From assembly GCA_016342645.1 (NCBI GenBank), contig JAEINX010000001.1, positions 34,582 through 98,581 on the forward strand: a DNA stretch of 64,000 nucleotides, given 5' to 3'. Position numbers and translations under genes: made by a program. The DNA comes from Bacteroidales bacterium (GTDB taxonomy: Bacteria; Bacteroidota; Bacteroidia; Bacteroidales; JAEINX01). Shown one piece after another: positions 2,086-54,602 of this stretch. The stretch's first letter is position 1; the number at the start of each line of letters is the position of its first letter. Under the pieces are notes generated by a model that saw only the letters and a program-made list of their open reading frames with translations, had not been told where the DNA came from and did no database searches.

Positions 2086-2330
2086 AGTAATGAGTCCGAT
2101 TTAAAAACTTATTTCACGCAAAGGCCGGAAAGTTTTTATGCAAAGAATGTAAAACAAATACGTTAAAATTTTGTTATTTGCGATTTTTTGCTATTCGTCT
2201 GCGATCTTTGCATGAACCGCTACCATAATAAAAAATGTTTTTGTGTTTGCAATTTATTTTTCGCAGATGATGCTGATTATTGCAGAAAAAAAATCAGCGG
2301 AATTAGCTAAAGATTTTTTTAAATTATCTG

Positions 2331-2477
2331 TTTCATAATATTAATTATTTTTTGTTACTTTGTTTAAAAATTATTTTCAAATGCTTTACGGCTTGATTTT
2401 ATTGAAGAAAAAAAATAGAAGTTTTAAAAAAAACATATCGAAATAAGTTAACAAAATATATGGCCACAGAAGAAATA
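2331..2477 (+). repeat. Copy A of a ~145-bp imperfect direct repeat (partner at 11377-11521)
   Basis: Hand alignment of tttcataatat.aattattttttgtt..tttgtttaaaaattatttt.aaatgctttacggcttg...atggcca.agaagaaata gives roughly 88-90% identity with a 2-nt indel. The copy ends exactly at the dcm ATG. Confidence 0.85.
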
Positions 2478-34972: not shown

Positions 34973-37498
34973 CTAATTAATTGTTACTTTTTCGGTACTT
35001 ATTCCTTCAGTTGTTTCAATACGAATTATATATAATCCTTGCTTGAAACTTTCAGTATTTATTGTCATCAATTTATTATTATTAGTCTCATCATAAATGA
35101 TTTGCCCAATACAATTAATAATCATAACTCTGCTGATATCACATATAGATTGGATGTTGATATTTTCGGTTGCAGGGTTCGGATAAATTGATAATGTTTT
35201 TGAAACATCATTAATTGAACCTTTTATAATATTTACAATACTGAATTCACCATCTTCGGCAGGATAAACATTTTCAACGTATGAATTATAAATATTTTCC
35301 ATTGTAAAATCTACATCAGAAATTTCATTAGAATTCGAATTATAGATTTTTAAATTAATCGGATTACCTTGTACATATCCCTGACCATCAGTTAATGTAT
35401 TAAAAACAGGGAGAGCGTTTAATAATCTATTTTCCGATGAAATTTTAGTTGCACCAACCAAAACATCTCCGTTATAAGCTGCTACTTCATCACCAATTTC
35501 CAATCCGTCAACATAAATTGTATAAACGGCATCTGCGGCATTACCTCCATTAAAATTGAAATGTGTTGCCTTGGAATTAACCGAATTAATTGAAGATTTT
35601 TCATCGTTTGAAGGATATATCAAAACTGCGGGATTAAGCATTTTTACAAGATAACCTTCGCCCGGATTTGCATTACCAATACCATTAATCCAGTTTGGCC
35701 CAATTTTTCTAAGCATTCCGCCTTGTGAATTTCTAATATATGAAAGATCATCTCCTATGATTGAAGCAAAAGCTGTTAAAGCATCAATTGAAGAAATTGG
35801 TAAAAAGCTTACAAAACGAAATCCTGCCGGTAGAGAAATAGGTGTATCGGGAGCAAGCTGATCGCCTTCAAAAGCAAAGGTTTCCGCTCCATCCAACTTA
35901 AACAAATATCCTTCGGTCGAAATCCAGTCACCAATACCATTGATCCAGTTCGGCCCAATTTTCCGTAACATATTACCATCAGAATTTCTTACATATGCAA
36001 GATTCTCATTTAAAATATCTTCTAAAACAATCAGCATATCCATGTTTTCTTCAACAACATAAGAAGATATAAATTGAAAGCCCGGATATAAAGAAAACGA
36101 TTGAATAACAGGCCCTGATGATGATTGTCCGGTTATCAAAATATTATCAATTTCCCAAGTTGAAGATTCATCAATAGTTGACATATATTTAAATGCAAGA
36201 TAAACTCTTGAACCTGAATAAGCTGAAATATCAACATCTCCTGATTCTATCCACTCATAATTTCCTTGTGACCATTCCGGTTCGAGATATGCCCATGTTG
36301 CTGTATTTGGATCACTTACACCATCATAATCGGTCGAAATTTTCAATTCAAGTGGCGGGCCGGCATAGTTCATAGCGGATATGAATGAAATAACTTCATC
36401 TGTATAATTATCAAAGTTTAAGGCAGGAGAAATTAACCAGTCTTCATTTTCGTTACTTGCAGATGTATATCCTGACATTTTTGCAAAATAATCACTGCCA
36501 TAAGAGGATGGCACCCATATTTGTTCACCAATTACATTATATTCAGACCATGTTCCTAATGTTTCATCATTAAAGTCTTCAGCATTAATAATCGCAATGT
36601 CATCGGTTGTTGCATTAGCTGAGGGCGGAGTTCCGTCAGTTTTATAGTCGATATTTGGGCCTCCGTTAGTATATGGGAATATTTTGAAATAATAAGTAGT
36701 TGCCGGATCAAGGTTTGCAAAAGTGTATTGTTGAACACCATAGTTAATATTCATTATTCCTGTTCCATCAGAAAGATCAGGATCATTAGCTTCCGGTGTA
36801 CCGTCAATAGGAAGATCAATATTATTTTCATCACTTGCTTTGATTAAATAACCTGAAGGAAGTTGATCACCAATTGCATCATCCCATGAAAGATTGATTG
36901 AAATACCATCAGCTACGGCTCCAAAATTAGTTGGGTAATTTGTAGGCTCGGGAGAAGGAGCACTTCCGGTTATTGAAAAGTCATCATAATAAACTGAACC
37001 ACCATTATTGCCATCTTGATGGTAAACCCTTACTTCGAACCTAAAACCTGTTGCAGTAGGTGGTGCAGCTAAATTTGCCGAAAATTGAATCCAATCCGGA
37101 TTATCCTCAGAATATTCTGAAGGTCGCAAAATATCGGCATTGTCCGGTAGTGTGGTGGTTTCGTTTAATAACCAATATGCCCAGATTCTTGTCTTGGCTT
37201 CAGGATCATTGTCATAATACCAATAACTTATAGCATAAGTTTCGCCACCTGTAATTGACATTACATCTTGTGTAAAATCTTTAGTGCTGCTGGCAGAAGT
37301 ATGCATAGCAGAATAGGTTCCGCCATGAACCGGTGTGGTTGCCTGAGTAATGTTTTCGGCTTTTGTCCAATCGGTTGGGAAGTTTGGATCATCCCATAAT
37401 TCTAAATCTCCGTTTAATACATAGTTTTGGGCATTAACAATAAATGCACCTGATATCAGGAAGATTGAGATAACTGATAAAAGAAAAAGTTTTTTCAT
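34973..37498 (-). CDS. Secreted protein: CBM4_9-like + FN3 + choice-of-anchor-J-like domain + shared cassette + T9SS CTD
   Basis: Signal peptide, NYVLNGDLELWDD..PTDW (CBM4_9-like) and FN3 (YYFKIFPY). EDFNDETLGTW...EDWLISPALNF resembles choice-of-anchor J. The cassette and CTD follow (LSIYPNP...YIIRI). Confidence 0.75.
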   Translation of the reverse strand: MKKLFLLSVISIFLISGAFIVNAQNYVLNGDLELWDDPNFPTDWTKAENITQATTPVHGGTYSAMHTSASSTKDFTQDVMSITGGETYAISYWYYDNDPEAKTRIWAYWLLNETTTLPDNADILRPSEYSEDNPDWIQFSANLAAPPTATGFRFEVRVYHQDGNNGGSVYYDDFSITGSAPSPEPTNYPTNFGAVADGISINLSWDDAIGDQLPSGYLIKASDENNIDLPIDGTPEANDPDLSDGTGIMNINYGVQQYTFANLDPATTYYFKIFPYTNGGPNIDYKTDGTPPSANATTDDIAIINAEDFNDETLGTWSEYNVIGEQIWVPSSYGSDYFAKMSGYTSASNENEDWLISPALNFDNYTDEVISFISAMNYAGPPLELKISTDYDGVSDPNTATWAYLEPEWSQGNYEWIESGDVDISAYSGSRVYLAFKYMSTIDESSTWEIDNILITGQSSSGPVIQSFSLYPGFQFISSYVVEENMDMLIVLEDILNENLAYVRNSDGNMLRKIGPNWINGIGDWISTEGYLFKLDGAETFAFEGDQLAPDTPISLPAGFRFVSFLPISSIDALTAFASIIGDDLSYIRNSQGGMLRKIGPNWINGIGNANPGEGYLVKMLNPAVLIYPSNDEKSSINSVNSKATHFNFNGGNAADAVYTIYVDGLEIGDEVAAYNGDVLVGATKISSENRLLNALPVFNTLTDGQGYVQGNPINLKIYNSNSNEISDVDFTMENIYNSYVENVYPAEDGEFSIVNIIKGSINDVSKTLSIYPNPATENINIQSICDISRVMIINCIGQIIYDETNNNKLMTINTESFKQGLYIIRIETTEGISTEKVTIN
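35222..36106 (-). repeat. Shared C-terminal cassette copy 3 (A+B 35612-36106, GGNAAD domain 35222-35566)
   Basis: YVRNSDGNMLRKIGPNWINGIGDW and YIRNSQGGMLRKIGPNWINGIGNA, then FNFNGGNAADAVYTIYVDGLEIGDEVAAY. Confidence 0.85.
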
Positions 37499-37777: not shown

Positions 37778-38977
37778 TTAGCAATCTTCATTTGCAAGAA
37801 ATTGCCTGATGTGCATATGTTTAATTCCTTTATAATCTTCTGCAAATTCATCCGCTGAAACCACTATTTTCTCATAATTATCTTCGATTTTTAGTAGGTT
37901 TCCAAACTCTCTATCTCTTACTTTTTCATCAGGTAATTGATATGCAACCTGTATATATTTTGTTTCATTTCCTTTTTTAGCAACAAAATCAATTTCTCTA
38001 TCCTGATGTTTTCCAATATAAACCTTATAGTCCTCGAAAATTAATTGATTATAAACCAGATTTTCGAATACCTTTCCTATATGGCTACCTGTAAATGGAA
38101 TAATGGAATTTATTAATCCCAAATCTGAAAAAAAGTATTTATCATTTATCTCAAACCTTTTTTTACCAATAATATCCAAACGTTGTACTTTGTTGATAAA
38201 AAACGAATTCGTAAGATATTTCAGATAGTTCATTACAGTGTTTACTGATAAACTTACTCTCTGTGCTTTTAAAAAATCGCTGATCTTTTTTGATGATACA
38301 TAACTGCCGAGATTATCAGACAGGTATTCAACCAAACGTTCTAAGAAATCAATATCCCTTATGTTATATCTTGACACAATATCTTTAAGAATAATAGTAT
38401 TGTATATGCTATTTAAATATCCGTAAATTATTTCATCATCAAATGGTAAATGGATTAAATACGGTAGCCCACCATAACGAATATATTTGTTTAAAGTATC
38501 GTTATTGTTTTCCAATTTATGAATTTGTAAAAATTCATTGTATGAGAGGCTGTTTATATGAAACTCAATATAACGGCCTGAAAGGTGTGTAGCCAAATCA
38601 CCGGACAACATTTTGGCATTGCTTCCGGTACAAAACAAATCAATACCTTCAACAAGCAATTGCCTTAATGCGATTTCAAAATCTTCTATTTCCTGTATTT
38701 CATCAATAAAAACATAGTTTTTTTTGCTTTCAGATAATTTAGAATTTACGTATTGAAATAAATCTTCTGCAGCTTTTATATGTTTAAAATCGTTTTGTTC
38801 TTTATTAATGTAAATATTATGAGCATTTTTGTCTTCCTGTTTAACCATATCCATTATTTGTTTAAGAATAGTGGTTTTACCGACACGTCTTAGTCCCGAA
38901 AGGACTTTTATAATGTTTTTACCAATATAGGGCTTGACTTCTTTTAAGTATTTTTCTCTTATAAATACAGATTCCAT
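37778..38977 (-). CDS. AAA-family ATPase with DUF4143-type C-terminal domain
   Basis: Walker A GLRRVGKTT and Walker B VFIDEIQ, then a C-terminal region typical of AAA_14/DUF4143 proteins. The ATG at 38977 is preferred over the track's TTG at 38995. Confidence 0.8.
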   Translation of the reverse strand: MESVFIREKYLKEVKPYIGKNIIKVLSGLRRVGKTTILKQIMDMVKQEDKNAHNIYINKEQNDFKHIKAAEDLFQYVNSKLSESKKNYVFIDEIQEIEDFEIALRQLLVEGIDLFCTGSNAKMLSGDLATHLSGRYIEFHINSLSYNEFLQIHKLENNNDTLNKYIRYGGLPYLIHLPFDDEIIYGYLNSIYNTIILKDIVSRYNIRDIDFLERLVEYLSDNLGSYVSSKKISDFLKAQRVSLSVNTVMNYLKYLTNSFFINKVQRLDIIGKKRFEINDKYFFSDLGLINSIIPFTGSHIGKVFENLVYNQLIFEDYKVYIGKHQDREIDFVAKKGNETKYIQVAYQLPDEKVRDREFGNLLKIEDNYEKIVVSADEFAEDYKGIKHMHIRQFLANEDC

Positions 38978-39008
38978 AATGAAATGTTTTTGCAAATATA
39001 CAATATAT

Positions 39009-39145: not shown

Positions 39146-42100
39146 TTAATTTGGATACACCACCGCACCGCTCTCAAACATTTTAATTAGATATCCTTCT
39201 CCGGGTTTGCATTCTCCTATTCCATTTATCCAATTAGGGCCTATTTTTCTTAGCATTTCACCATCGGAGCTACGAATAAAATCAAGTTTTTCATTTAAAA
39301 TTGAAGCAAAAGCTATTAGAGCATCTATTGGATTGTCAGGAAAATAACTTATAAATTGATATCCGGGGTTAAGCCCGACAGTAACTTCAGGATTAACTTT
39401 CTCACCATAGATTTTTAAGGTTTCCTCATTTAACATTTTAATTAAATATCCTTCCGAAATTTTCCAGTCACCGATCCCGTTGACCCAAAAAGGCCCGATT
39501 TTTCTAAACATTTTACCTTCTGAATTTCTAATAAAAACTAAGTTTTCATTTAAATTCGAATCCATAACAACTTTCATATCTGGAAATTCAGGCAAAACAT
39601 TTGAAGACACAAATTGAAATCCCTGTTTTAAGTCAATTGTTTGAATATCGCTTGAAATTGCAGGAATAGGAAAATCAATATTATCAATCCAGACACAATC
39701 ATCAAAACTGCTTTGGCTGGAATTTTTCTCATAAACCCATTTAAAACAATGTTTTCCTGAAGAAACAGGATAAGTTTTCTTCTCCCAATCAGATACACCT
39801 ATTAACTCATCAATAATTTCATCATCAATATAAAATTTCAAAAAGTCAATACTTTCGCAAGAAATTTTCCTGAAAAAAGAAATAGAATCATCTTTTAAAA
39901 CCTTGAAATCAATTCGTAATTCCGAATTTTGATTTTCGATAATTTCTCCTGACTTAGCACAAAATATACCTTCATAAGGATCGGTTGATGAAATCTGCCA
40001 ATTTTCATCTCCTCCAAATTCCCAGTTGAATTTACTAAAATCACCTGATTCAAAACCTTCGTTTGTTCTTATAACTTTTTCCGTAAAAGTTTTTTTAGAT
40101 AAATATTCTCCTGTATTAATATTTATAGTCAGATCAAGGCTAGTCCCCGATGGCATTAAATCAGAAAGACTTACATTAAATATAGCGTTTTTAATACTGT
40201 CACTTTTTATTATATCAATTTCAAAAAGCGAATTATTAATTATAAGAAATTCATTTGCAGACTCAAGCTGACAATTCACATTTTGAGCTTCGGACTGTCC
40301 TTCATTTTTAATTTCAAAAATTAGATTTGCTGTTTCTCCGGGATCAAGACGCCCGTTATTATTTGTATTTAAATCACCAACAATGAAATTATTACAGATT
40401 AATAATGGTGCATATGCATGAGCAATTGAAAAGGATTCGTCTAAGTTTTGCTCATAAATTAATTCAAATCTAAAAGAAAGTTCGTAATTATCAGGAATAT
40501 TTTCGGCAACTTCAATCTCGAAAGCATTTTCAATAATTATTGATTGCTCAGGAAGTAATGGGCCGGAAAAAGAAATTTCATCGGAAATGACATTAATATA
40601 CTGATCGGAAAAATCAAGAACCGAATTTATCGATCCTGTAGCTTCATTTTGTCCTATATTTTTAACTTCTATGGATAAAATTACAGTCTCCCCCGCCTCA
40701 ATTAAAGTATCATCAGGAGTATTAATTATTAGTTTATCAACAAGCAAATAAGAATCGGAAATATCTTTTGCCGGCAATGATGCGAAATAAGGTTTGTGTT
40801 GTGGTTTTGTAACAACAAGGTTTACATTTCCTTCGGTTAGAACCGGAGAAATCGGGATTTCGGCAAATCCGTTTTCATCAATAAAAGCCGAGCCAAGCAA
40901 AATTCCATCTTTTGAAATTCCAACATAAGAACCTGCAAGTGCTGAAACTTTAAATATTTCTGTATTCATTGGAAATATACATAAATGATTTACAGAGTTG
41001 GATTTTGCTTCCGTGAAATAAGTAATTAATGATGGATCGCCAAGCAAATTATATGATTGCCAATAAAACAAAGAGCTGGTTTGATGAGGATAACCTTGAA
41101 TATTTGCTTCCGTAACCGCAAGATTTCCAACGAAAACCAAAGCATCGTTTGCCACATAATCAGAAACAAAAGAAGCATCATAAGCTCCGAGGCTAGTTTC
41201 CTCAAAACTTGGAACATAGCCATTATTATTACCGACAATAGGAAACGCTCCTACTGCCCAATAAAAATCTTCGAACCATTGTGAAAATCCTGCCGAACCA
41301 ATATATGCAATTGCTCCTCCATTAGGGTTTCTTAAAAATGATTCACCAATACATTCACTATATCCAAAATCCCCGGAATAACAACAATTTGCAATTACTA
41401 AAGGAGATTTGTTTGAATTATAAAAAGCATAAACATCCCCACGGTCAAGGGCAGGGTCAATCCAAGAGGTTTCGGTTCCGTGAGCAGAATAAGTTAAAAA
41501 ACTAAGCCCGGGATTCATAGTATTGTAACAACCGTTATATTCGATTAAATATTCATTTACCGATTCAAAATCATTAGCCTGATTAAAATAATTTTCGGTT
41601 CCGTATTTAATTGTTGCTTGCCCAATTGCAGGATTCCAGGTTTGATCGACTCCTGCAATTAGAGTAGCATTATTCAAGAAAGAAGGGTCATTTTCCAGAT
41701 ATTTTTCATAAGAAATTGTTTTTTCCACCTGAGCTGCAATCTCCTCCTGATTTTTCCCTGAAAACCGCCCAATGTACATTTCCGGAAAATAATCATAATC
41801 AACGCTCGAGTAATATAAATCGGTCATTTTTCCCGTTAAAGCACCAAGGCTTGCCGGTATTTGTTGCGTATCACCGACTAAGAGAATAAAACTCGGTGCA
41901 GGGTCATCGGGAGTTGCTTCGTTATATCTTTCGTGTATCCATGTTTTAATTTCGTTATAAGAATATCCAATTTCGTCGGTAAACGCAATAATAATTTCAA
42001 AACCCTTTAAGGTTTTCCATTCAATAAAATCCTGAATTTGCTCTTCAAACTGACGGTCGCAAACAATCAAATATTTAACGGGATATTTTGTCAAGTCAGG

Positions 42101-42814
42101 GTGTGCGGGATAATTGTCGGTTTTATAATTTAATAATTTATTATAAACAACTTCAAAATATGGTGAAAAAGTTGAAGCCTTTTTGCTTTCTGTTAATAAA
42201 ACATCACTATCCGCGAAATCCAATTCAAGTTCGATATTATTATAAACACGAATGATTCCTTTTTGGGGATTATAACTAATGGGTGAAATTTCTAATCGTG
42301 CAATGCGAATACCTCTCAAAATCCCAAGAACTTCTGTTTTGACCAATTCCTTATCATTAAATTTATCAATTTGATAGAATTTTTCATTAAATTTGATTTC
42401 TAAATCATGAGCAGATAAATCTTTTCTTGGTGAAGTTTGAACAGGTAATATCAAATTATGAATTCCAAAGTCTGTTAATTTATATTCACGAACATCATAA
42501 GTAATATTTTTGATTTTAACTTCTGCGCCAAACGGAATTTCAATCAAATTTTTTATTGCCGGCACTTTGGGTTCTCCAATATTACCACAAAAATAAGAAC
42601 CATCAATGTATAAATCAGTAAAAATACCCTTATCGGTTTCTATATCAAAGGCTTTAATTTCATTAAAATTATAATAAAGTTTTAATTTTGAAAAATCATT
42701 CTGCTTTATAATTTTTTCAGATTGTTTATCCGAAACAGTAATAGTTTGACCCTGGCCAAATGAAAAGAATCCAATAGGAATTAACAGAAAAACACAAAAC
42801 AATTTCTTCAACAT
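39146..42814 (-). CDS. C25 (gingipain-like) cysteine peptidase ending in cassette repeats A/B, without GGNAAD domain or T9SS CTD
   Basis: Signal peptide, C25 propeptide-like N-terminus (FDIETDKGIFTDLYIDG..GEPKVPA), catalytic-type motifs SAHGTETSW (His) and ANCCYSGDF (Cys), and Ig-like segments. The protein stops right after repeat B (..GAVVYPN*). Confidence 0.8.
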   Translation of the reverse strand: MLKKLFCVFLLIPIGFFSFGQGQTITVSDKQSEKIIKQNDFSKLKLYYNFNEIKAFDIETDKGIFTDLYIDGSYFCGNIGEPKVPAIKNLIEIPFGAEVKIKNITYDVREYKLTDFGIHNLILPVQTSPRKDLSAHDLEIKFNEKFYQIDKFNDKELVKTEVLGILRGIRIARLEISPISYNPQKGIIRVYNNIELELDFADSDVLLTESKKASTFSPYFEVVYNKLLNYKTDNYPAHPDLTKYPVKYLIVCDRQFEEQIQDFIEWKTLKGFEIIIAFTDEIGYSYNEIKTWIHERYNEATPDDPAPSFILLVGDTQQIPASLGALTGKMTDLYYSSVDYDYFPEMYIGRFSGKNQEEIAAQVEKTISYEKYLENDPSFLNNATLIAGVDQTWNPAIGQATIKYGTENYFNQANDFESVNEYLIEYNGCYNTMNPGLSFLTYSAHGTETSWIDPALDRGDVYAFYNSNKSPLVIANCCYSGDFGYSECIGESFLRNPNGGAIAYIGSAGFSQWFEDFYWAVGAFPIVGNNNGYVPSFEETSLGAYDASFVSDYVANDALVFVGNLAVTEANIQGYPHQTSSLFYWQSYNLLGDPSLITYFTEAKSNSVNHLCIFPMNTEIFKVSALAGSYVGISKDGILLGSAFIDENGFAEIPISPVLTEGNVNLVVTKPQHKPYFASLPAKDISDSYLLVDKLIINTPDDTLIEAGETVILSIEVKNIGQNEATGSINSVLDFSDQYINVISDEISFSGPLLPEQSIIIENAFEIEVAENIPDNYELSFRFELIYEQNLDESFSIAHAYAPLLICNNFIVGDLNTNNNGRLDPGETANLIFEIKNEGQSEAQNVNCQLESANEFLIINNSLFEIDIIKSDSIKNAIFNVSLSDLMPSGTSLDLTININTGEYLSKKTFTEKVIRTNEGFESGDFSKFNWEFGGDENWQISSTDPYEGIFCAKSGEIIENQNSELRIDFKVLKDDSISFFRKISCESIDFLKFYIDDEIIDELIGVSDWEKKTYPVSSGKHCFKWVYEKNSSQSSFDDCVWIDNIDFPIPAISSDIQTIDLKQGFQFVSSNVLPEFPDMKVVMDSNLNENLVFIRNSEGKMFRKIGPFWVNGIGDWKISEGYLIKMLNEETLKIYGEKVNPEVTVGLNPGYQFISYFPDNPIDALIAFASILNEKLDFIRSSDGEMLRKIGPNWINGIGECKPGEGYLIKMFESGAVVYPN
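39149..39637 (-). repeat. Shared cassette copy 4 (repeats A+B only)
   Basis: FIRNSEGKMFRKIGPFWVNGIGDW and FIRSSDGEMLRKIGPNWINGIGEC. Confidence 0.85.
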
Positions 42815-42944: not shown

Positions 42945-45056
42945 TTATTTAACAGTTAATTTTTTTGTAATAATGTTTTCTGAAATATTTATTTGCAAGA
43001 AATAAATTCCGGCAGGATAGTCGGATGAATTGAGTTTAACATTATTAGAATTTGAGTTTTCTTCAAAAATTACTTGACCGGCAAAATTCAATATTTTAAT
43101 ATTTACAATATTTTTCTCCGAAACTATATTGATAATATTGTTTGCAGGATTTGGAAAAACATTAATATCGTTTCCGGAAATTTCGCTTGCAATTGATGAA
43201 TCTTTAGTAATGCTTAAAATGCTGAATTCAGCGTCATCTGTCGGGAAAGTGTTTTCAGAATAGGCATCAAAATATTCATTATTAAAATTATATGAACAAG
43301 AAGCCTCAGTTTGGTTTTTATTATCCCAAACTTTTATAGAAATTTGATTTTCTTCGGTATAACCTGTTCGACTTGTAAGTGTTTTGAACACAGCTATGCT
43401 ATTGTCGAATTGATTGAGCGAACAAATAACATCAGAACCAACCATAATATCTCCATCAAAAACAGCAACTTCATCACCAATTTCCAAACCTGAAACATAA
43501 ATTGTATAAACCGGATCGGCTGCATTTCCGCCTTCAAAAATAAAATATTTTGTTGTTATTTGATTTTTTGTGGATAATGTGGATTTAACAGGAATATTAT
43601 AAACCAAATCATCATCAGCGTACATTTTTATCAAATACCCTTGGCCTGGATTTGCATTTCCGATTCCGTTAACCCAATTCGGGCCAATTTTTCGCAACAT
43701 CTCACCTTGTGAATTTCTGATATAATGCAAATTATCATTTAAAATACTTTCAAAAGCAACTGAAGCATCTATAGCAACTACAGGCAAATAACTTACAAAC
43801 TGAAATCCTTCAAAAAGCTCAATCGAAGTTAAGGGATCAATTTCAATTCCTGCAATTTCTAATGTTTCCGAGCCGGCCATTTTAAATAAATAACCTTCGG
43901 TTGTTACCCAATCGCCAATACCATTAACCCAGTTTGGCCCGATTTTTCTAAACACAGAACCGTTGGAATTTCTTACATATACAAGATTTTCATTTAAAAT
44001 ACCGCTTAAGACAAGAAGCATATCGGGATTTTCAACTTCTATTCTTGTCGATGAAAATTGGTAACCAACATCTAAATCTATGATCTGAGTAGCCAGAACA
44101 GTAACTTCTACAGGATCGGTTTTTTCCGATTCTCCCTCATCGTAAACAGCTGAAACTTCGTAAAAATATGTGCCGGAACTAAGATCATAATCAATATAAG
44201 TAGTTTCATCTGCTGTGTTTAAAAATTGTCCATCCCTATAAATTTTATAATTGATGAAATCATCGCTTATCGGGGCATCCCAATTTAATGTAACATCGTC
44301 ATCAACTACATTTGCCTGAAGATTTATTGGTGGGGCCAGTGGAGGATTTTCGTCAAGCATCAAAGAAATACCTTGTAAAATATCTTTGCTTGAATTGTCC
44401 TGAACAAAAAGTGAAATCTCACAATTCTCAGTTAGCCAGCTTGCATCTACTGAAAAATCAAGAGAAACTGTTTGAGTATTTGAAGAAGAAAAATCGAGGT
44501 TGCTTCCGTAAGAATCAGGAACCATTAATCTCATCACATGATTAACTTCGGAAAGCCCACTCCAACTAAATGGAATATGCGATTCGGTTAAAGACATTTG
44601 CAAAACAAGGTCTTCACCTGTATATTCGGCAACTTTTGTAACCGTAACATTTAAATTGTAATCAGGTGCTGTTCCTGAAAGTGTGTAATCAATAGTGAAT
44701 GAACAAGGAGTATTTATCTGATTTTGATAAAACAGATCGTGCTCCGACCATGTTGCCCATTGGTAATATCCTATCATATTTGCATCGTAATAGGTAGTCG
44801 GAAACCATGTCCAACCGTAAAAACTTTGCCTTGCAGTATAAAAAGAATTTTGGAAAGGATCATTATAATGATATTCAATAATTGCTATATCATAATTTAA
44901 TTGCTGCATTTGCTCCATAATTGCAACTACAGAAGGGCAGGCGCCTCACCATGTGCCGGAGGAGATTTCAACAATTACTTTTTCTCTTGGTACTTGTTGC
45001 GAAAACATCAAGAATGGTATAAGAACCATTAAGCTTAGTAAATAAATTTTTTTCAT
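42945..45056 (-). CDS. Thioredoxin-fold / Omp28-related-like T9SS protein with in-frame TGA at the CxxC position (candidate selenoprotein, alternatively a pseudogene)
   Basis: The ATG at 45056 encodes signal peptide MKKIYLLSLMVLIPFLMFSQQ, then VIVEISSGTW-TGA-GACPS, in frame with the tracked ORF (Met at 44918). An FN3-like domain, cassette A/B, the GGNAAD domain and a CTD follow (INVFPNP...YFLQI). Confidence 0.6.
43203..44084 (-). repeat. Shared C-terminal cassette copy 5 (A+B 43596-44084, GGNAAD domain 43203-43550)
   Basis: YVRNSNGSVFRKIGPNWVNGIGDW and YIRNSQGEMLRKIGPNWVNGIGNA, then FIFEGGNAADPVYTIYVSGLEIGDEVAVF. Confidence 0.85.
44904..44932 (-). other. Hairpin 13 nt downstream of the in-frame TGA (candidate bacterial SECIS)
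   Basis: On the mRNA strand, CUGUAGUUGC-AAUUAUGGA-GCAAAUGCAG forms a 10-bp stem with one mismatch and one G-U pair. The 9-nt loop contains GG, and the UGA-to-loop distance is 23 nt. Confidence 0.35.
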
Positions 45057-45288: not shown

Positions 45289-47760
45289 TCAAAATCCAAT
45301 ATTCAAAAACAAAGTTGGAGTAATGGGCATTGCTTCCGAATAAATGGTTTTGCCTCCCGGCAGGTTTGAGAAGTCATTATATCTGACATTATTTGTATTA
45401 AGCAAATTGATTATTGATAATCCACTTTCAAACTTTATTCTTTTTACATTAAATTTATAAAGAAATGCCAGGTCAAACCTGCTGTAAGGATCTGTTTTAA
45501 AATCTTTAAAGTTTAATGAACTTGCTAATCCCGATCCATAGACATAGTTTATTGAAATAAAAAAGGGATTGAAATTGAAAAGAGCTGCCCCTTTTATTTC
45601 ATGCCTTTGATCTTGTGGTGCATTATGAAATTCATTATTTTTGAGATAATTAAATTTTTCTTCTGTTTTACTTAAAGAATATGTTACCCAAAACTCATGG
45701 TTTTTAATAATTTTCCTGATATAAAAATCGACTCCGTAACTTCTTCCTTTGCCGTGATATAATTTCAATTGCGAGGAGTTATCTTTATAAATGAATCGGT
45801 TTAATCCGTTTGTTGTTTTATAATAGCCTTCAAGACTGTAATTAAAACCCTTATTTGTGAAGGATATTCCTGTAATATACTGTACTCCTTTTAATACCGA
45901 AATATTTTTATTATTGCAAATACTCCAGAAATAACTGTAATTGTTTAAATCATCAATCAAGGCATTCTCAGAAATAAATTGATTAAAAACACCCCATGCG
46001 AGATTAATTTTCCAGTTTTTCAAAGGCTTTATTGTTGCATCAATCCTTGGTTGAAAGTATGGTTTCGATATGTTTGCAGGGAAATCAATCCTTAAGCCCG
46101 GTTGAATATTGATATTTTTATTGATCGTAATATTATCTAATAAATAATAACTTAATCGGTTTGCTTGTGTCAGTCTGTTCTTTTGAGTAATATGTGTTGA
46201 ATCCTGCCTGTATCCGGTTCTGTTATTTGTAAATTTCAGTCCCATACTTAAACTATGTTTCCTGAATGCAGGGAAATGATGATCGGTTTTTATTGAAAAC
46301 TCAGAAATGCTGTTTTCAGTAAACAATACATTTAAGGAATCGTAAGCGGGTTCATAATAGTTAAGGCTATCAAATGAATTAGATATTAGGCCGGAATAAG
46401 CTATTGTTGTATTGGTTATTCCGGCTTTTTCCCAGTTGTTATTATAAAATATTGCACCTCCGAGTTGCTTTTGTTCAAGTTCTTTTGTTAATGAGTAAGA
46501 TTTAGTATCTTCATCTTTGCTAAATTTATATGACGACCTGTCATTCTCAGTAAGTAAACTCACATAAAAATTGTCACCTTTGGTAGTTCTGCCTGAGAAT
46601 TTAATATTCATATCCTGAAAATCATGATCAGGTTTATAAGTATCTGATTTATTTCCTTCCTTTGTTTTTAAAATATCATTCCAGTTAAGGAAATTGCGGT
46701 AAGACTGCCTAAATGAGAGCTGTAAGGAATATTTTCCTGCGATGGGAATACCTGCCAAACCACTGACAGTTTGATTATTTATATTGGCATTAGCGGAAAA
46801 TTTTTCAGGATTTCCCGATTTAGCTGTTATGTTAATTACTCCTCCAACCCTGCCACCAATATTAGAATTATACCCGCCCTTCATAATTTCAACATCTTTA
46901 ATAATTAAGGGGTTGATAACTCCAATTTTGTCATTTAAACTACTAATGCTAAAAAGAGGAATTCCATCAAATAAAATCAGGTTTTGTCCTTTATATGAAC
47001 CCCAAATTATATAATCATCGGTATGTTCGGCTGCAGCAAGAATTCCCGGCTGCAAACGCAAAAGATTGAAAATTGTATTATCATTATTCCCCGGTAAAAA
47101 TGAAGATATCTTATGATTTAATTTGATTAATCCTGATTTTTCGCCAATATGAGAATAAAATGCTTTGACTTCAGAATTTACGACCACTTCCTCTAAACCA
47201 ACAATCGAAGGCATCATTTTCAACTCCTGATTTGTACCAGAAGGAAGAATTGTATCAAGCAGAAAATATCCAATGTGGGAGGCTTTTAAGTTTGCAATAC
47301 TGTCATTCGATTTAAACGAAAAATTACCGTTAAGGTCGGAAATCAAACCACTTGAATTAAATTGAATATTGGAAAATGGTAATGTTTCTTTATTCAATTT
47401 ATCTGAAATATGGCCTGAAAACAGATAAACTTTTTCTTTGGGTACATCTAATTCTTCTTCTTTCGCAAAAATGATAAAAACATTTTTATTGATCTCGAAG
47501 GCAAGATTACAACTTTTTGTTAGTTTGGAAATTACCTGCCTTGGGGAATCATAAGAACCCGAATCTGACACAATACAGTTTGAAAGTAATTTATCGTTAA
47601 ATGAAAACTGAACACCATAATTATCACGTAATTCAAGAAAAACCTCATTTAGAGGCTTCTCATGAATATTTATATTGATTTTCTGAGCATTCAAGTTTAT
47701 TGATACACAGAAAACAATAATTATTAAGGAGCTTATTATTAAAAAATTTCTTCTAAGCAC
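45289..47760 (-). CDS. TonB-dependent receptor with N-terminal STN signalling domain and carboxypeptidase-regulatory-like domain
   Basis: Signal peptide, STN-like INIHEKPLNEVFLELRDNYGVQFSF, a CarbopepD_reg-like segment, plug and barrel, with a C-terminal ..LNIGF. The GTG start overlaps the FecR stop by 1 nt (TAGTG). Confidence 0.8.
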   Translation of the reverse strand: MLRRNFLIISSLIIIVFCVSINLNAQKININIHEKPLNEVFLELRDNYGVQFSFNDKLLSNCIVSDSGSYDSPRQVISKLTKSCNLAFEINKNVFIIFAKEEELDVPKEKVYLFSGHISDKLNKETLPFSNIQFNSSGLISDLNGNFSFKSNDSIANLKASHIGYFLLDTILPSGTNQELKMMPSIVGLEEVVVNSEVKAFYSHIGEKSGLIKLNHKISSFLPGNNDNTIFNLLRLQPGILAAAEHTDDYIIWGSYKGQNLILFDGIPLFSISSLNDKIGVINPLIIKDVEIMKGGYNSNIGGRVGGVINITAKSGNPEKFSANANINNQTVSGLAGIPIAGKYSLQLSFRQSYRNFLNWNDILKTKEGNKSDTYKPDHDFQDMNIKFSGRTTKGDNFYVSLLTENDRSSYKFSKDEDTKSYSLTKELEQKQLGGAIFYNNNWEKAGITNTTIAYSGLISNSFDSLNYYEPAYDSLNVLFTENSISEFSIKTDHHFPAFRKHSLSMGLKFTNNRTGYRQDSTHITQKNRLTQANRLSYYLLDNITINKNINIQPGLRIDFPANISKPYFQPRIDATIKPLKNWKINLAWGVFNQFISENALIDDLNNYSYFWSICNNKNISVLKGVQYITGISFTNKGFNYSLEGYYKTTNGLNRFIYKDNSSQLKLYHGKGRSYGVDFYIRKIIKNHEFWVTYSLSKTEEKFNYLKNNEFHNAPQDQRHEIKGAALFNFNPFFISINYVYGSGLASSLNFKDFKTDPYSRFDLAFLYKFNVKRIKFESGLSIINLLNTNNVRYNDFSNLPGGKTIYSEAMPITPTLFLNIGF

Positions 47761-48644
47761 TACCTGTTTTGTACAACTTTGTATTTATTTTTTTCAAGTT
47801 TTACAAAAGTAAAATTAAAACTTTTACAAATAAAATTCAATGAAGATTTTACAGATACTTCTTTTGTAAAATAACCGGTGTAAGTATAATCATCGGGGTT
47901 TTTCAGGTCAGTAATAATTTTTACATTATATTGCCGTTCAAGCTCTTCAAATACATTTGATAATGATTCGGCAGTAAAAATGAATTTATTGTTTTTCCAG
48001 CTGAGGATATTTTCGGCTTTTATATTTTCGACCTTTCCAAGCTTGTTTTTATTATCTAAAATCACAATTTCCCCGGGACTGATAATAAAATCAACATTTG
48101 TTTTTGTACTTGATACTTTTATTTTTCCTGTTTCGCAAAAGACTTTGTAGTCATTATTTCTTGCGTAAATATTAAAACCGGTTCCCAGAACTTCTGTGAC
48201 ACCGTTTTCAGACATGACTTTAAATTTCTTACCTCTTTCTACTTCAAAAAATGCTTCTCCTTCAAATGCAATTTCTCTGTCGAAATTCCACCAATATGGA
48301 TGATATAAAATTGAAGATTCGGCATTCATTTCAACAACTGATCCATCAGGCAAAACCTGACTGATATGTTCACCTTTTTCACACTGTATTTTTGTTGTGA
48401 AAAATTTCAGAAATAAGGACGTTCCAATCAATAGAATCACAATTGCCGCTGCCGAGACTTTGAGCCAAATCATAGAAATAACTTTCGTTTTTGATTTAAC
48501 ATGAGGCCGATCTGATAATTTATCAGAAATAATTCCCCATATTTCATCTTTGTTTTTAGCAAAAGGAATTTCTACCTTTTTTAAAAAGTCATCATGCTCA
48601 GCATTACTTTGATTATAGCTTATATGTTTATCAAGGTTTTCCAT
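47760..48644 (-). CDS. FecR family anti-sigma factor
   Basis: Cytoplasmic N-terminus, a single TM helix (VSAAAIVILLIGTSLFL), and a periplasmic FecR domain followed by a C-terminal DUF4974-like part. Confidence 0.8.
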   Translation of the reverse strand: MENLDKHISYNQSNAEHDDFLKKVEIPFAKNKDEIWGIISDKLSDRPHVKSKTKVISMIWLKVSAAAIVILLIGTSLFLKFFTTKIQCEKGEHISQVLPDGSVVEMNAESSILYHPYWWNFDREIAFEGEAFFEVERGKKFKVMSENGVTEVLGTGFNIYARNNDYKVFCETGKIKVSSTKTNVDFIISPGEIVILDNKNKLGKVENIKAENILSWKNNKFIFTAESLSNVFEELERQYNVKIITDLKNPDDYTYTGYFTKEVSVKSSLNFICKSFNFTFVKLEKNKYKVVQNR

Positions 48645-49130
48645 TTACATTTTCATCATACTTCTTAGCTTCGACAAAGCTGCACTCATTCTTTTTTCAA
48701 CAGCTTTAACACTGATCTGCAATCTTTCGGCGATTTCTTTGTAGGATAAGTCTTCCATACGGCTCATTAAAAACACAACTCTTTGTTTTTCCGGTATTTT
48801 TGCAAGTGAAATTTCATAAGTTTTTAATAATTCAGCTGATTCCATGTGATTATTTGTATCTTCTTCTTTGAAATTAAATTTAATCTCCTTCAAATATTCG
48901 TTTGCAATTTTTTCTCGTCTTAAATGACTTATAAACATATCCCCTGAAATTTTATAAAGCAGGCTTTTTATTTTTCTCGGTTCATAATAAAATTGTTTTT
49001 CCCAGATTTTGATGAATGTTTCCTGAGCAATGTCGGTCGATAATTCTTCGTTTCCCGACCTGTAGAACAAATAGCATCTAATTCCTTCAAAGAACTGATC
49101 ATAAACATACGTAAACTCTCTTTTCGTCAA
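48645..49130 (-). CDS. ECF (sigma-70 family) RNA polymerase sigma factor
   Basis: Region 2 (DIAQETFIKIWEK) and region 4 HTH (LSYKEIAERLQISVKAVEKRMSAAL). The apparent start is TTG, and the stop abuts the FecR start. Confidence 0.8.
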   Translation of the reverse strand: MTKREFTYVYDQFFEGIRCYLFYRSGNEELSTDIAQETFIKIWEKQFYYEPRKIKSLLYKISGDMFISHLRREKIANEYLKEIKFNFKEEDTNNHMESAELLKTYEISLAKIPEKQRVVFLMSRMEDLSYKEIAERLQISVKAVEKRMSAALSKLRSMMKM

Positions 49131-50090: not shown

Positions 50091-53000
50091 TTATTTTATT
50101 GTAATCTTTTCAGTAATTATTTCATTATTTGTTTCAAGTTGAATGAAATAAATTCCTGATTGATAATTTGAAGTATTTATGTTTAAAATAGAATTATTTG
50201 ATTCGTTGTCGAACATAATTTGACCAACTGAATTCAATACCCTAATACGGTTTATAGTATTGTTTGATACTATATTCAGTACATTTGTAGCCGGATTTGG
50301 ATAGATACTTACTTCTGTTAAAGCTGTTTTCTCAGTTCCAATAGTTCCTTTTGTTACATTAACAACACTATATTCGCCATCAATCGCAGGGAATTGTGTT
50401 TTTGTGTAAGCTGTAGGATGTTCATTATCAAAAGTGTAAGTAGCAGAAACTATAGTTTGACTTTGTGCATCCCAAACCTTCATAATGACCTCGTTTCCTG
50501 CCTTGTAACCTTGTCCGTTTGAAATTGTACTAAATATAGGAATACTGTTATCAAGTGCATTTTCTGAAGAAATAAGGCTTGTTCCAACTAATTTGTTAGC
50601 GTCATAAACAGCAATTTCATCACCAATGTTCAAGCCTGAGACATAAATAGTATAAACCGGATCAGCGGCATTACCACCTTCGAAATTAAAATTATTTACA
50701 GCTTCCGGTGTTAATGAAGATAATGTAGCCTTAACAGGAATATTATAAACTAATTCGTCATCTGCAAACATTTTAATTAAATAACCGTCTCCGGGATTAG
50801 CATTACCAATTCCGTTAACCCAATTAGGACCAATTTTTCTAAGCATTTCACCGTTTGAATTTCTGATATAATCCAAATTATCATTTAAAATTCCATCAAA
50901 TGCAAAAAGAGCATCAACTGATTGAGCCGGGAGATAACTTACAAATTGATAACCTGTTTCAAGATTAATAACTGTTAATGGGTTTAATTCAATTCCTTCA
51001 AATTCGAGAGATTCTGCAGCAAACATTTTAAAGAGGAAACCTTCGGTAGAAATCCATTCACCTATTCCGTTTACCCAGTTTGGTCCGATTTTTCTTAAAA
51101 CTTCTCCATTTGAATTTCTTACATATTCAAGATTTTCATTTAAAATATCCTGTAAAACGACAAGCATATCAGGGTTATCAACTTCAATTCTTGATGAAAT
51201 AAATTGATAACCAGTGTTTAATTCAACGACCTGAATTGTTCCGCCTGAGTTAAATCCGAAAAAATCAAGATATTTTGTCATTAGTTCTTCTTTAGTTGCT
51301 TCGCTATCATCTAATCCACCAAATTCAAATGATGCCCCAATAGTTGCATAATCACCTGCATCAAAGGCAACTCCACAACCATAATTAGGTGATTGATTTT
51401 CAAAAATCAATACTGCTGATCCGGTGGGAGAAATATGATCAATCCAACTGTTTTGACCTGAATAATTAAACAACATTCCTTCTGTAAATGATCCGTTTAA
51501 GCCCAGAATAGTTTCAAGATCGGATGAACCATCAGCTTCACCATTAATATTAAACATAGGATGAACAGGTGTTGGATCATCATAATACCATGTGTCGCCA
51601 CCTTCCATATAAAGTTTACCTCCTCCGTTTAGGAAATCAGCAAGGTCTTGTCCTTCGTCATCGGTTAGAACATGATTATCGGAATAAATACCAAGACATA
51701 CAAAGGCTGAAGAATACAGTGATAGATCAGCAGGAATAGATGTTGTATATTCGCAAGCAACATTTAGATTATCAATACAATTCTGAATTACCGGACCTGA
51801 CGTAGGTGTATCATCAAGATCAATAATGATAACCGGAATCTGTCCGATTACAATGTTAAATTCACCTGAAGCAACAATACCAAAGTCGGCTTCTATATCG
51901 AAATCAAAATTAGCGAAATGACCTGTTGGAGTACCGGCATCAGCAGTTATGTTAAATACTTGTTCCTCGATGTTTTCAGGGGTAATATTTCCATAAGATT
52001 GTGGTTCGGAATTAATTGTAACGTAAGGATCTGAAGAAAGAAGTTCACCAATTACATTATAAGCATCAGCCGAACCTGTATTTTTAACAAAAATTGTAAT
52101 ATCTGCTGTTTCGCCCGGATCAATTGTTCCATTACCCGAAATCTCGAAAGTAACAAATTCCAGAATAGGTGCATGAGCTTTAATAACAAATGTTCCTGTC
52201 CATATTTCTGTTCCATCAGTAGCTTCAAAACTAAACATTATATTATGATCATCAGGTACATCATATCCAACACTAATTTCAAAACCGTCAGTAACTGAAA
52301 CAACTTCATCAGGATCAACATCACCGTAATTTTCAGAATTATCGTTTATTGTTGTGTATAAATCAGTTGTTGCAATAGTAACATCAACATTATTTGCAGT
52401 TTCAATACCAACATTTTCTATTGCAATTGTTAATTTCACAGTTTCGCCATATTCAAGCATTCCGTTATTATTTCCGGCCGCATCATTAATTTCGTAAGAA
52501 TCCATAAGAATATATGGGCCGTCAGGAGCAGTAACAACAACTGTTCCTATATGAGGTTGCCTGTTTTGTTTTGTAACAACTATGTCAACTACACCGGGAA
52601 CGGAAATCGGTTCTAATGAAACTATTGCCATTCCTGTTTCATCAGCTATACCACCACCATAAAGAACACCTTCTCTTGAGATTCCAACATAAGCGTAAGG
52701 TTCGGTAGTTACAGTAAAAGTTTCACTATTAAGCATCATAGCCCCCGGATAACTGATTGTCAATTCAGGTGGTTGGGAGTAATAGATCATTAATGAAGGA
52801 TCACCCATTAGACAATAAATTTCCCAGTAATAATCGCCACTTCCTGGAGCACCTTCTGCAACAGCAAGGTTTCCAATAAAAATCATTTGATCCTGAGTTA
52901 TATACCAATCTTCAATAGGTTCACCATGATCATGGAAAGTTCCATCATAAGCACCGAGGGTAGTTTCTTCGTAAGAAGGAGGATCTTCAGATATTTCGCC

Positions 53001-54602
53001 AACACCAACTCCCCAGTAATAATCAGGATCCCACATTGTGCTATTTGACCCGCCAATATATCCAACTGCTCCTTTATTTTCGGCTCTAAGGATTTCTTCG
53101 GCAAAACAGTCAATATCATACTCGCTTGATGAGCAACAATTTCCCACGAGTAAGCCATATTTGCTTTCATTTTGTAGACCTGAAATATCACCAATAGTAA
53201 AAGAAGGATCACCCCAACCGGATGGACTGCAATGGGCAGTATAATTTCCAAATGATACACCATCGCTAACATTTTGAATAATATTGGCAGAATTACTACC
53301 TGATTCGGGATATAGATAAACATGAGCTGTTAGACCGTGAGCAGTATTAAAATAATTTTCTGTTCCATAATTAATTTGACCGTTTCCCCAATCGTATCCG
53401 TGGCTGCCGTCCATACCTGCAACTAATACAACTTCATTTAGGTAAGAAGGATCAGGCATCAAATATTGTTCGTATTCAAGAGTTTTATCAATTTGGGGTT
53501 GTAATTGGCCGGCATTATTTGCCGAAAATCGGCCATAATACATATCTGGTAACATATCGCCTGTGTATTCACAATAATATAAATCGGTAACATGGTAACC
53601 GGTAGTTCCTGAAAAAGCAGGAATTTGTGCAACATCACCAACAAATAATACAAATGCAGGTGGTGGATCATCAGGTGTACCGGCTTGATATAAGCCCTCT
53701 AAATAATTTTTTATTGAGGTTGTGGTTGTTCCAACATTAGGATCGTTAGTATAAGCTTCGATAATTTCAAATCCTTTTTTTGTTTTCCACTCAATGAATG
53801 CTTGGAGTTGTGTCTCAAACATTGGATCGGAAACGATAACATACTTAACCGGAGAATCGGTGATCAGTTCTTTGCTATCAAGGGTTTTGTAATTAAAAAT
53901 TTGACTTTTCAAGCCATTGAAGAAAATATTTGAATTGTTTTTCTTTTTATTAATAGTTTGCGTTACATCAGCTCCTTCAAATAAAACTTCAACATTAATT
54001 TCTTCATAAATTTTTATGGTGTTAGTAACCGGATTATATTGAATCGGAGAAATATTTAATCGAGCAATTCTGACACCTCTCATAATTCCCAAAACATCAA
54101 CACTAACAAGAGTTGTTGGTGCGAAAGAGTTTCTTTGATAAGCTCTTTGATTAATTACTATTTCTGTTTCACCCTCTTCACCTTTGTTAACCTGCGGTTG
54201 AGTTGGAAAAACAATGTTTGTTATTCCCAATTCTTCTAAAGTGTATTCATTTACTTTAAAATCAATCACATTAACACTTGGAGTAGAATTCATTGGAATT
54301 TCTATCAACCTTCTGTTAACAGGTAATTTAGGGAATCCGATTTTCTGTGTATAAGAATATCCTTCAATATTAAATTCAGTAAAATCACCTTTATCGGTTT
54401 TTACCTCAAAGAAATTGATATCAGAAATTGAATTTTCAACTTGCAATTTCAGATAGGTGTTCTCAACCACTTCAATTGCCGTTTTTCCATCATTAAGTTT
54501 TATGTTTTCAGCATAAAGACTAAATGAAGTTAGAAAAAAACAAACAGCCATTAAAATTGCTTGTAATTTTCTCATTTTGTAGATTGTTTTCATTTTTCTC
54601 AT
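50091..54602 (-). CDS. C25 (gingipain-like) cysteine peptidase with Ig-like domains, shared cassette and T9SS CTD
   Basis: Propeptide-like N-terminus (FEVKTDKGDFTEFNIEG..GFPKLPV), then TAHCSPSGW (His) and GNCCSSSEYD (Cys). The cassette and CTD follow (VSIYPNP...YFIQL). The likely true start is MRKLQAIL at 54575. Confidence 0.8.
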   Translation of the reverse strand: MRKMKTIYKMRKLQAILMAVCFFLTSFSLYAENIKLNDGKTAIEVVENTYLKLQVENSISDINFFEVKTDKGDFTEFNIEGYSYTQKIGFPKLPVNRRLIEIPMNSTPSVNVIDFKVNEYTLEELGITNIVFPTQPQVNKGEEGETEIVINQRAYQRNSFAPTTLVSVDVLGIMRGVRIARLNISPIQYNPVTNTIKIYEEINVEVLFEGADVTQTINKKKNNSNIFFNGLKSQIFNYKTLDSKELITDSPVKYVIVSDPMFETQLQAFIEWKTKKGFEIIEAYTNDPNVGTTTTSIKNYLEGLYQAGTPDDPPPAFVLFVGDVAQIPAFSGTTGYHVTDLYYCEYTGDMLPDMYYGRFSANNAGQLQPQIDKTLEYEQYLMPDPSYLNEVVLVAGMDGSHGYDWGNGQINYGTENYFNTAHGLTAHVYLYPESGSNSANIIQNVSDGVSFGNYTAHCSPSGWGDPSFTIGDISGLQNESKYGLLVGNCCSSSEYDIDCFAEEILRAENKGAVGYIGGSNSTMWDPDYYWGVGVGEISEDPPSYEETTLGAYDGTFHDHGEPIEDWYITQDQMIFIGNLAVAEGAPGSGDYYWEIYCLMGDPSLMIYYSQPPELTISYPGAMMLNSETFTVTTEPYAYVGISREGVLYGGGIADETGMAIVSLEPISVPGVVDIVVTKQNRQPHIGTVVVTAPDGPYILMDSYEINDAAGNNNGMLEYGETVKLTIAIENVGIETANNVDVTIATTDLYTTINDNSENYGDVDPDEVVSVTDGFEISVGYDVPDDHNIMFSFEATDGTEIWTGTFVIKAHAPILEFVTFEISGNGTIDPGETADITIFVKNTGSADAYNVIGELLSSDPYVTINSEPQSYGNITPENIEEQVFNITADAGTPTGHFANFDFDIEADFGIVASGEFNIVIGQIPVIIIDLDDTPTSGPVIQNCIDNLNVACEYTTSIPADLSLYSSAFVCLGIYSDNHVLTDDEGQDLADFLNGGGKLYMEGGDTWYYDDPTPVHPMFNINGEADGSSDLETILGLNGSFTEGMLFNYSGQNSWIDHISPTGSAVLIFENQSPNYGCGVAFDAGDYATIGASFEFGGLDDSEATKEELMTKYLDFFGFNSGGTIQVVELNTGYQFISSRIEVDNPDMLVVLQDILNENLEYVRNSNGEVLRKIGPNWVNGIGEWISTEGFLFKMFAAESLEFEGIELNPLTVINLETGYQFVSYLPAQSVDALFAFDGILNDNLDYIRNSNGEMLRKIGPNWVNGIGNANPGDGYLIKMFADDELVYNIPVKATLSSLTPEAVNNFNFEGGNAADPVYTIYVSGLNIGDEIAVYDANKLVGTSLISSENALDNSIPIFSTISNGQGYKAGNEVIMKVWDAQSQTIVSATYTFDNEHPTAYTKTQFPAIDGEYSVVNVTKGTIGTEKTALTEVSIYPNPATNVLNIVSNNTINRIRVLNSVGQIMFDNESNNSILNINTSNYQSGIYFIQLETNNEIITEKITIK
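50349..51236 (-). repeat. Shared C-terminal cassette copy 6 (A+B 50742-51236, GGNAAD domain 50349-50696)
   Basis: YVRNSNGEVLRKIGPNWVNGIGEW and YIRNSNGEMLRKIGPNWVNGIGNA, then FNFEGGNAADPVYTIYVSGLNIGDEIAVY. Confidence 0.85.

Follow-up and report, generated by a model that had tools for sequence, protein, structure and literature searches.

The stretch of DNA analysed here (hereafter the window) comprises 64,000 nucleotides of a Bacteroidales bacterium (contig JAEINX010000001.1 of assembly GCA_016342645.1) with a G+C content of 32.8%, and carries on its minus strand a candidate selenoprotein gene whose reading frame is crossed by a single TGA. Translation of the minus strand gave an ATG at 45056-45054 followed by MKKIYLLSLMVLIPFLMFSQQVPREKVIVEISSGTW, the TGA at 44948-44946, the protein body starting with GACPSVVAIMEQ and a TAA at 42947-42945. 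When the TGA is read through, the frame comprises 703 codons and is otherwise open; the TGA is codon 37 and takes the place of the first cysteine in a W-C-x-x-C-P motif. A mechanical list of open reading frames (ORFs) holds just the part from Met47 onward (44918-42945, 657 residues). An earlier reading of the letters alone (the original prediction) had described a signal peptide parted from its body by a single TGA, an arrangement that the translation confirmed. The gene can be divided into the following features.

42945-45056, minus strand: full putative selenoprotein gene with TGA-37 read through, 703 codons plus TAA, as translated; start, TGA and overall frame are the same in three orthologous loci (L005, L006 and L017, see below).

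45000-45056, minus strand: signal peptide, residues 1-19, MKKIYLLSLMVLIPFLMFS followed by QQ, with putative cleavage before Gln, from the sequence and from an N-terminal helix (residues 2-18) in an AlphaFold2 model.

44946-44948, minus strand: in-frame TGA, codon 37, proposed selenocysteine (Sec) codon that would open a U-G-A-C redox motif, aligned with an invariant cysteine of homologs and with Cys48 of HBP35.

44937-44939, minus strand: TGC, codon 40, resolving cysteine of the UxxC motif, aligned with Cys51 of HBP35.

44916-44918, minus strand: internal Met47, the start given to the artefactually truncated ORF in gene calling, from the mechanical ORF list.

44904-44932, minus strand: candidate selenocysteine insertion sequence (SECIS) hairpin of 9 base pairs (bp) and one G.A mismatch with the 9-nucleotide (nt) loop AAUUAUGGA, from folding and conservation in orthologs.

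44854-44932, minus strand: conserved 79-nt block, nt 125-203 of the coding sequence (CDS), with two variable positions among three lineages and suppressed synonymous change.

44349-44996, minus strand: HBP35-like domain, residues 21-236, consisting of a thioredoxin-like subdomain and an Omp28-like beta-sandwich (Pfam, AlphaFold2, Foldseek).

44103-44333, minus strand: fibronectin type III (FN3) domain, residues 242-318 (PF00041, 26.4 bits, cutoff 25).

43167-44099, minus strand: cassette of about 310 residues (320-630), 40-58% identical to six other ORFs of the window.

42948-43160, minus strand: type A C-terminal sorting domain of the type IX secretion system (T9SS), residues 633-703 (PF18962, 52.9 bits, cutoff 27; TIGR04183, 51.3 bits, cutoff 23).

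Domain searches were run with a cysteine substituted at position 37. Residues 78-234 matched the Pfam family Omp28 (PF11551) with 40.8 bits against a gathering threshold of 34.9, which places the protein in this family. The type A sorting domain at the C-terminus agrees with the secretion by T9SS that had been proposed from the letters, and together with the signal peptide, which is part of the protein only when the TGA is read through, it gives the protein both hallmarks of a type A T9SS cargo. The (F/Y)(S/A)QQ/QE junction that follows the signal peptide is common to all Cys homologs. The proteins of the window and of L005 have the FN3 domain, which the L006 ortholog (L006 2839-4704, 621 residues) lacks; the architecture is therefore variable inside the Sec clade.

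The AlphaFold2 model of residues 1-239 was obtained with a predicted local distance difference test score (pLDDT) of 92 and a predicted template modelling score (pTM) of 0.86. In this model the redox motif lies between a strand (residues 27-33) and a helix (residues 40-52), as in thioredoxin. The top match of Foldseek in the PDB was 5y1a, the HBP35 protein of Porphyromonas gingivalis (E-value 1.2e-14, template modelling score 0.76, 249 aligned columns), followed by 2axo and then by the Omp28 domain 2r2c. The match to 5y1a extends over the whole domain and aligns the WCGYCP of HBP35 with W[U]GACP: the segment of HBP35 starting at residue 36, KNVVLEVFTAEWCGYCPGG, stands opposite EKVIVEISSGTW[TGA]GACPSV, with the TGA in the column of HBP35 Cys48. 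The thioredoxin-fold or Omp28-related domain anticipated in the original prediction was borne out as a thioredoxin-like and Omp28-like fold with HBP35 as its best match.

HBP35 has thioredoxin activity and is secreted as a T9SS cargo; its Cys48 and Cys51 are needed for insulin-reducing activity, and the C48S/C51S double mutant loses activity (PMC2907840). The two proteins have in common the two-part domain, an active site of the W-C-x-x-C-P type in the same place, the signal peptide and the T9SS C-terminal domain. They differ in that HBP35 has Cys rather than Sec, shares only about 18% sequence identity and carries neither FN3 nor cassette. Hemin binding and disulfide reductase activity are known for HBP35 alone, and hemin binding is not inferable for the window protein.

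A comparison with homologs revealed a cysteine at the TGA column in all 17 full-length proteins found by a protein search, within the motif GTGTWCxxCP. A search of the GTDB representative genomes, with a query built on purpose without the CxxC stretch, returned twelve loci. Ten of these, from Flavobacteriales, Marinilabiliales and Bacteroidales, are Cys forms with TGT or TGC at the column, and they join the 17 proteins in upholding the claim that the TGA stands at the first Cys of a CxxC motif. The two others, L005 and L006, are the closest to the window and carry TGA at exactly codon 37. They come from uncultured Bacteroidales metagenome-assembled genomes (MAGs) of different projects, which are representatives of different GTDB species; the amino-acid identity of their domain to that of the window is 98% (L005) and 88% (L006), with 82-87% nucleotide identity over about 4 kb. 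A metagenome scan added one further locus on an independent Joint Genome Institute (JGI) contig, L017, which matches L005 with 99.8% identity and likewise carries the TGA. Two other hits were uninformative, one (P0018/L019) being a 5'-truncated gene and the other (P0033/L020) a fragment at a contig edge with an ordinary Cys.

Substitutions flank the TGA between lineages (GAC versus GSC, PSVV versus PAVV, EISSG versus EVSSG), and there are zero indels from the ATG to the TGA among the orthologs. The ratio of nonsynonymous to synonymous differences per site (pN/pS, from Nei-Gojobori counts) is 0.04-0.14 in codons 1-36 and 0.10-0.16 in codons 38-236. Because these values are comparable, the substitution pattern indicates that codons 1-36 undergo translation and are under constraint of the same kind as the remainder of the gene. 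The gene thus presents an in-frame UGA aligned with Cys and flanked by coding sequence on both sides, kept in orthologs downstream of a frame under purifying selection, as expected of a selenoprotein gene.

The candidate SECIS hairpin begins 13 nt past the UGA, and its apical loop begins 23 nt past it. The position, the 13-nt offset and the 9-nt loop had been given correctly in the original prediction; the 10-bp stem had not, one of its pairs being the G.A mismatch. The minimum free energy (MFE) of the hairpin is -7.3 kcal/mol alone and -7.8 kcal/mol in a context of 42 nt. Published criteria for bacterial SECIS elements (bSECIS; PMC13188914) comprise an apical loop of 3-9 nt, an upper stem of 4-16 bp, a UGA-to-loop distance of 16-37 nt, an MFE of -7.5 kcal/mol or lower and a G within the first two loop positions. 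The geometry of the hairpin fits these criteria, with its loop of 9 nt, its stem of 4+5 bp around the mismatch and its spacing of 23 nt.

In the three-way codon alignment, the two longest invariant runs of the whole gene are of 46 nt (CDS nt 125-170) and 31 nt (173-203), and the former starts at the hairpin's first base. Over codons 40-66, synonymous change has occurred in 2 of 23 degenerate, amino-acid-identical codons, against a background of 30% in the domain and 38% gene-wide (post hoc binomial P of 0.017 and 0.002, respectively). A stem-adjacent U-to-G substitution in L006 adds 2 bp to the hairpin and brings its energy from -7.8 to -13.3 kcal/mol.

Two other folds were considered and rejected. 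An alternative canonical fold with the loop UGCA, in agreement with the rule on G, reached only -3.6 kcal/mol and was weaker still in L006, and a GC-rich mini-hairpin predicted around the UGA, whose structure is broken by three substitutions in L005, is not part of any element. RNAalifold also predicted a second, AU-rich hairpin right after the first (window 44868-44893, minus strand). Its top pair and loop hold both variable positions of the 79-nt block, and its reality is doubtful because one of the variants breaks a pair.

Among the NCBIfam models, the N-terminal domain was best matched by NF045500, 'Omp28-related selenoprotein' (E-value 8e-10, residues 25-232), which is equated in a 2026 review with 'hypothetical protein GOS_C', a UxxC protein with one Sec (Table 1, PMC13188914). 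The prediction of GOS_C dates from 2008 and was based on Global Ocean Sampling reads, which gave a family of 74 TGA forms and 312 Cys forms with a thioredoxin-like fold (Zhang & Gladyshev 2008, PMC2398784). The window protein is homologous to GOS_C and resembles it by its UxxC motif with one Sec in a thioredoxin-like fold, by its many Cys-form homologs and by being predicted from sequence only. It differs from these proteins of marine surface-water reads in being a 703-residue multidomain T9SS cargo of Bacteroidales MAGs. Moreover, its score of 38.6 bits on NF045500 lies far under the curated cutoff of 200, which makes it a homolog outside the equivalog family, so that this model would leave it unannotated.

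The superfamily is large, with 6,285 clusters at 50% identity for E <= 0.001. On NF045500 the other Sec lineages described below score 39-68 bits, and the Sec lineages and Cys relatives together 39-95 bits; true NF045500/GOS_C members were not reached by the profile and exhaustive searches, the best matches scoring at most 95 bits on the model. The window protein would represent a new Sec-containing branch of the same superfamily, outside the curated NF045500. The idea of a selenoprotein is therefore supported, with less novelty than had been assumed, since the NF045500/GOS_C model already exists.

A TGA at the same column was found in three further lineages of the superfamily, in Logan, ENA and JGI assemblies; each scores below the NF045500 cutoff and is split or truncated by gene callers. 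The first (L001-L004; L001 coordinates 2056-4107) reads ...FEIGTYSG-TGA-GWCLATL, has a 302-residue N-terminal region ahead of the TGA and is identical in sequence in four separately assembled sequencing runs. The second (L021) reads ...VEIATGTW-TGA-YYCPGAAMGAADL, its signal peptide being intact and its TGA lying around 391. The third (L018) reads ...EIGTRAQG-TGA-PYCPSTA, with the TGA around 2758. The L018 gene (2650-3000) needs two frameshifts to hold frame with its homologs, and the name of the contig suggests an indel-prone long-read assembly; because of these frameshifts its TGA is weaker evidence.

In each of the four Sec lineages there is a single hairpin in which the apical loop begins 20-23 nt past the UGA; the loop sequences are AAUUAUGGA, AAUGGGA, AAUGGCA and CAGU. 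At that offset the MFE of the Sec loci ranges from -7.8 to -13.7 kcal/mol (mean -10.0), against a mean of -6.3 kcal/mol and an inconsistent hairpin position in the ten Cys-form loci. This difference in folding is supportive (Mann-Whitney p = 0.038, with the small numbers of 4 independent lineages and 10 Cys loci).

These observations point to the gene 45056-42945 (minus strand) encoding one 703-residue exported protein in which UGA codon 37 is decoded as selenocysteine, a reading to which we attach a probability of roughly 0.78. Most probably, the truncated ORF is a mis-call of a gene for a T9SS-exported selenoprotein that has an HBP35-like thioredoxin fold and U-G-A-C as its active site. The interpretation first drawn from the letters, in which a selenoprotein secreted by T9SS has Sec in place of the first Cys of its thioredoxin-like CxxC, was supported in each part that could be tested. 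The alignment of the TGA with Cys and its conservation are clearly beyond chance, whereas the stability of the hairpin alone is not.

According to the mechanism that we propose, SelB carrying Sec-tRNA(Sec) would be recruited by the mRNA hairpin located 13 nt past the UGA, and Sec would be inserted instead of termination. The product would consist, in this order, of the signal peptide, the HBP35-like thioredoxin-fold/Omp28-like domain, the FN3 domain, a lineage-specific cassette and the type A T9SS sorting domain, with a modelled active site W-U37-G-A-C40-P at the strand-to-helix junction. By analogy with HBP35, the protein would be exported by the Sec protein translocon, then secreted by T9SS and attached to the surface. 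There, U37 and C40 may alternate between selenolate/thiol and selenenylsulfide forms, and the enzyme could be a thiol-disulfide oxidoreductase of the cell surface whose nucleophile is more reactive than that of its Cys relatives.

Such a protein would resemble the bacterial selenoproteins of the UxxC class (thioredoxin, DsbA-like, thiol:disulfide interchange; Table 1, PMC13188914) in having Sec at the N-terminal nucleophilic Cys, Cys orthologs in the majority and a SECIS inside the coding region right after the UGA. It would be distinguished from them by its Omp28/HBP35-like domain family and its T9SS route to the cell surface, and by a candidate SECIS with G residues in the 3' part of its loop.

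Several observations weigh against decoding as Sec. The stability of the hairpin does not exceed that of dinucleotide shuffles (z from +0.33 to +1.14), and 9.4% of the coding segments of the window at the same offset fold as well. Its energy of -7.3/-7.8 kcal/mol is borderline on the -7.5 threshold, the L006 version reaching -12.3/-13.3 kcal/mol, and the rule on G is failed, with G residues at positions 7-8 of the MFE loop AAUUAUGGA, on its 3' side. A non-canonical element is possible, since canonical SECIS elements are found in 87.4% of bacterial selenoprotein genes in BSepDB and about 13% are without, yet this is a real weakness. The covariation that was looked for as a check of the hairpin is absent, the hairpin being invariant in L005, L006 and L017, and the statistics of conservation given above were computed post hoc from three sequences. 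As for the decoding machinery, selA, selB, selD and tRNA-Sec were not found in the 64-kb window or in the fetched loci, and nothing relevant turned up when the loci, the local region and the window as a whole were searched for tRNA-Sec and Rfam families. A survey of 2006 detected no Sec-decoding trait in Bacteroidetes (PMC1794560), and nothing decisive was found in later literature on Sec machinery in Bacteroidales or Bacteroidota.

The want of Sec genes in the window and fetched loci, the survey of 2006 (PMC1794560) and the non-canonical hairpin also favour the alternative that survives best, although we hold it to be unlikely: the UGA may be read through without Sec, by low-level near-cognate insertion of Trp or Cys or by a SelB-dependent Cys-inserting tRNA, giving some selenium-free full-length protein. 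Conservation is in line with this too, as it shows that read-through matters and not which residue is inserted. However, the UxxC site would lose its activity if Trp took the place of the nucleophile, and to our knowledge Cys-inserting tRNAs for UGA are rare. A TGA at the first Cys of CxxC with a hairpin 20-23 nt downstream, recurring in four lineages, is moreover the classical signature of selenoproteins, and a homologous family is already curated as such.

A TGC/TGT-to-TGA mutation might instead have killed the N-terminus, leaving a pseudogene or at most a cytoplasmic fragment started at Met47 (44918), which was the null model of the original prediction (a nonsense mutation with reinitiation at 44918). 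Gene callers yield exactly this 657-residue ORF, the ATG of Met47 lies inside the invariant block, and HBP35 gives smaller products from internal starts in P. gingivalis (PMC2907840). Cross-species conservation contradicts the model and leaves it largely refuted, with little probability: the TGA and its 36 upstream codons have stayed free of indels in three lineages at the nucleotide identity and pN/pS given above, and the homology between L006 and the window starts about 15 nt before the first ATG and not at Met47. A conserved signal peptide is useful only when joined to the body of the protein, which makes decay into a pseudogene very unlikely. Furthermore, a T9SS cargo deprived of its signal peptide cannot get to T9SS, the fragment from Met47 would, in the predicted structure, keep neither strand 1 nor the active site of its thioredoxin fold, and the TGA recurs in the three other lineages.

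A sequencing or assembly error at 44946 would require only a single A for C or T, and the related locus L018 does come from an indel-prone assembly; this explanation is nevertheless ruled out by the conservation of the TGA and the upstream frame across loci, the TGA being present in the window, in two GTDB MAGs of different projects and, independently, in a metagenome contig from JGI, and the sequence of a second lineage being identical in four separately assembled runs. A lineage-wide reassignment of TGA, as in genetic codes 4 or 25, could be suggested by the AT-rich genome and its few TGA stops (3 of the 35 ORFs of the window) and is refuted within the window, since TGA ends three well-supported genes (6106-7536, 7579-8712 and 45289-47760) at their expected C-termini, such as the ...FLNIGF of the TonB-dependent receptor, in keeping with the prediction that it is a normal stop elsewhere, and since codon 37 is the sole TGA in 64 kb with real coding sequence on either side, no other ORF being interrupted by TGA; the aligned residue is, besides, Cys and not Trp or Gly.

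With decoding as Sec as the preferred reading, a broader proposal can be formulated, which we see as about evenly balanced between true and false: Sec may have been repeatedly recruited into the active sites of HBP35/Omp28-like, T9SS-exported proteins of Bacteroidota, in at least four lineages outside the curated family and with a family-typical non-canonical SECIS (a loop of 7-9 nt with AUGG in three of the four, starting 20-23 nt past the UGA). If this is true, the annotation of Bacteroidales falls short for extracellular selenoproteins as well as for the Sec-decoding trait, and the enzyme may serve the neighbouring gingipain-family protease. Gene callers cut the gene to a 657-residue ORF without signal peptide and the curated selenoprotein model misses it, as happens in at least three other lineages. 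If confirmed, the protein would be a surface-exposed, T9SS-delivered selenoenzyme in a phylum long thought to be without selenoproteins. It would also provide natural Sec/Cys pairs of a tractable enzyme, HBP35 having both an activity assay and a crystal structure, and examples of SECIS elements not covered by the consensus on which prediction tools normally rely. The case is useful for annotation, for the comparison of Sec and Cys enzymes and for the study of non-canonical bacterial SECIS elements, and is no surprise in principle.

The neighbourhood of the gene includes, on its downstream side, a peptidase gene that adjoins it also in L005, L006 and L017.

39146-42814, minus strand: C25 (gingipain-family) cysteine peptidase, downstream neighbour of the Sec gene.

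This is the only neighbour conserved in these three loci, and a cooperation of its product with the putative selenoprotein is plausible, if speculative. On the upstream side of the Sec gene lie a TonB-dependent-receptor-like gene (45289-47760), a FecR-like anti-sigma factor (47760-48644) and an extracytoplasmic function (ECF) sigma factor (48645-49130), a trio for which no counterpart was found in the 2.8 kb of upstream flank at L005, L006 and L017.

A C-terminal cassette of some 380 residues, 40-58% identical and without Pfam match, is common to seven large secreted proteins encoded in a span of 46 kb (12613-15111, 16487-21217, 34973-37498, 39146-42814, 42945-45056, 50091-54602 and 54729-58460, all on the minus strand). 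Their N-terminal head domains differ, and in most of them the shared cassette ends in a T9SS sorting domain. The six paralogs of the putative selenoprotein were said to carry signal peptides, and all six indeed begin with N-termini of this kind. The C25 peptidase ORF stops within the cassette (...GEGYLIKMFESGAVVYPN) and is without T9SS tail, which may be due to a truncation or insertion event; the ORF that follows it encodes an AAA_14/DUF4143 ATPase (37778-38995). Finally, at 2477-5192 of the window, a gene for a C-5 cytosine DNA methylase and the start of a HATPase_c_3 (GHKL ATPase) gene overlap, and the two genes may form a restriction-modification or defence pair.

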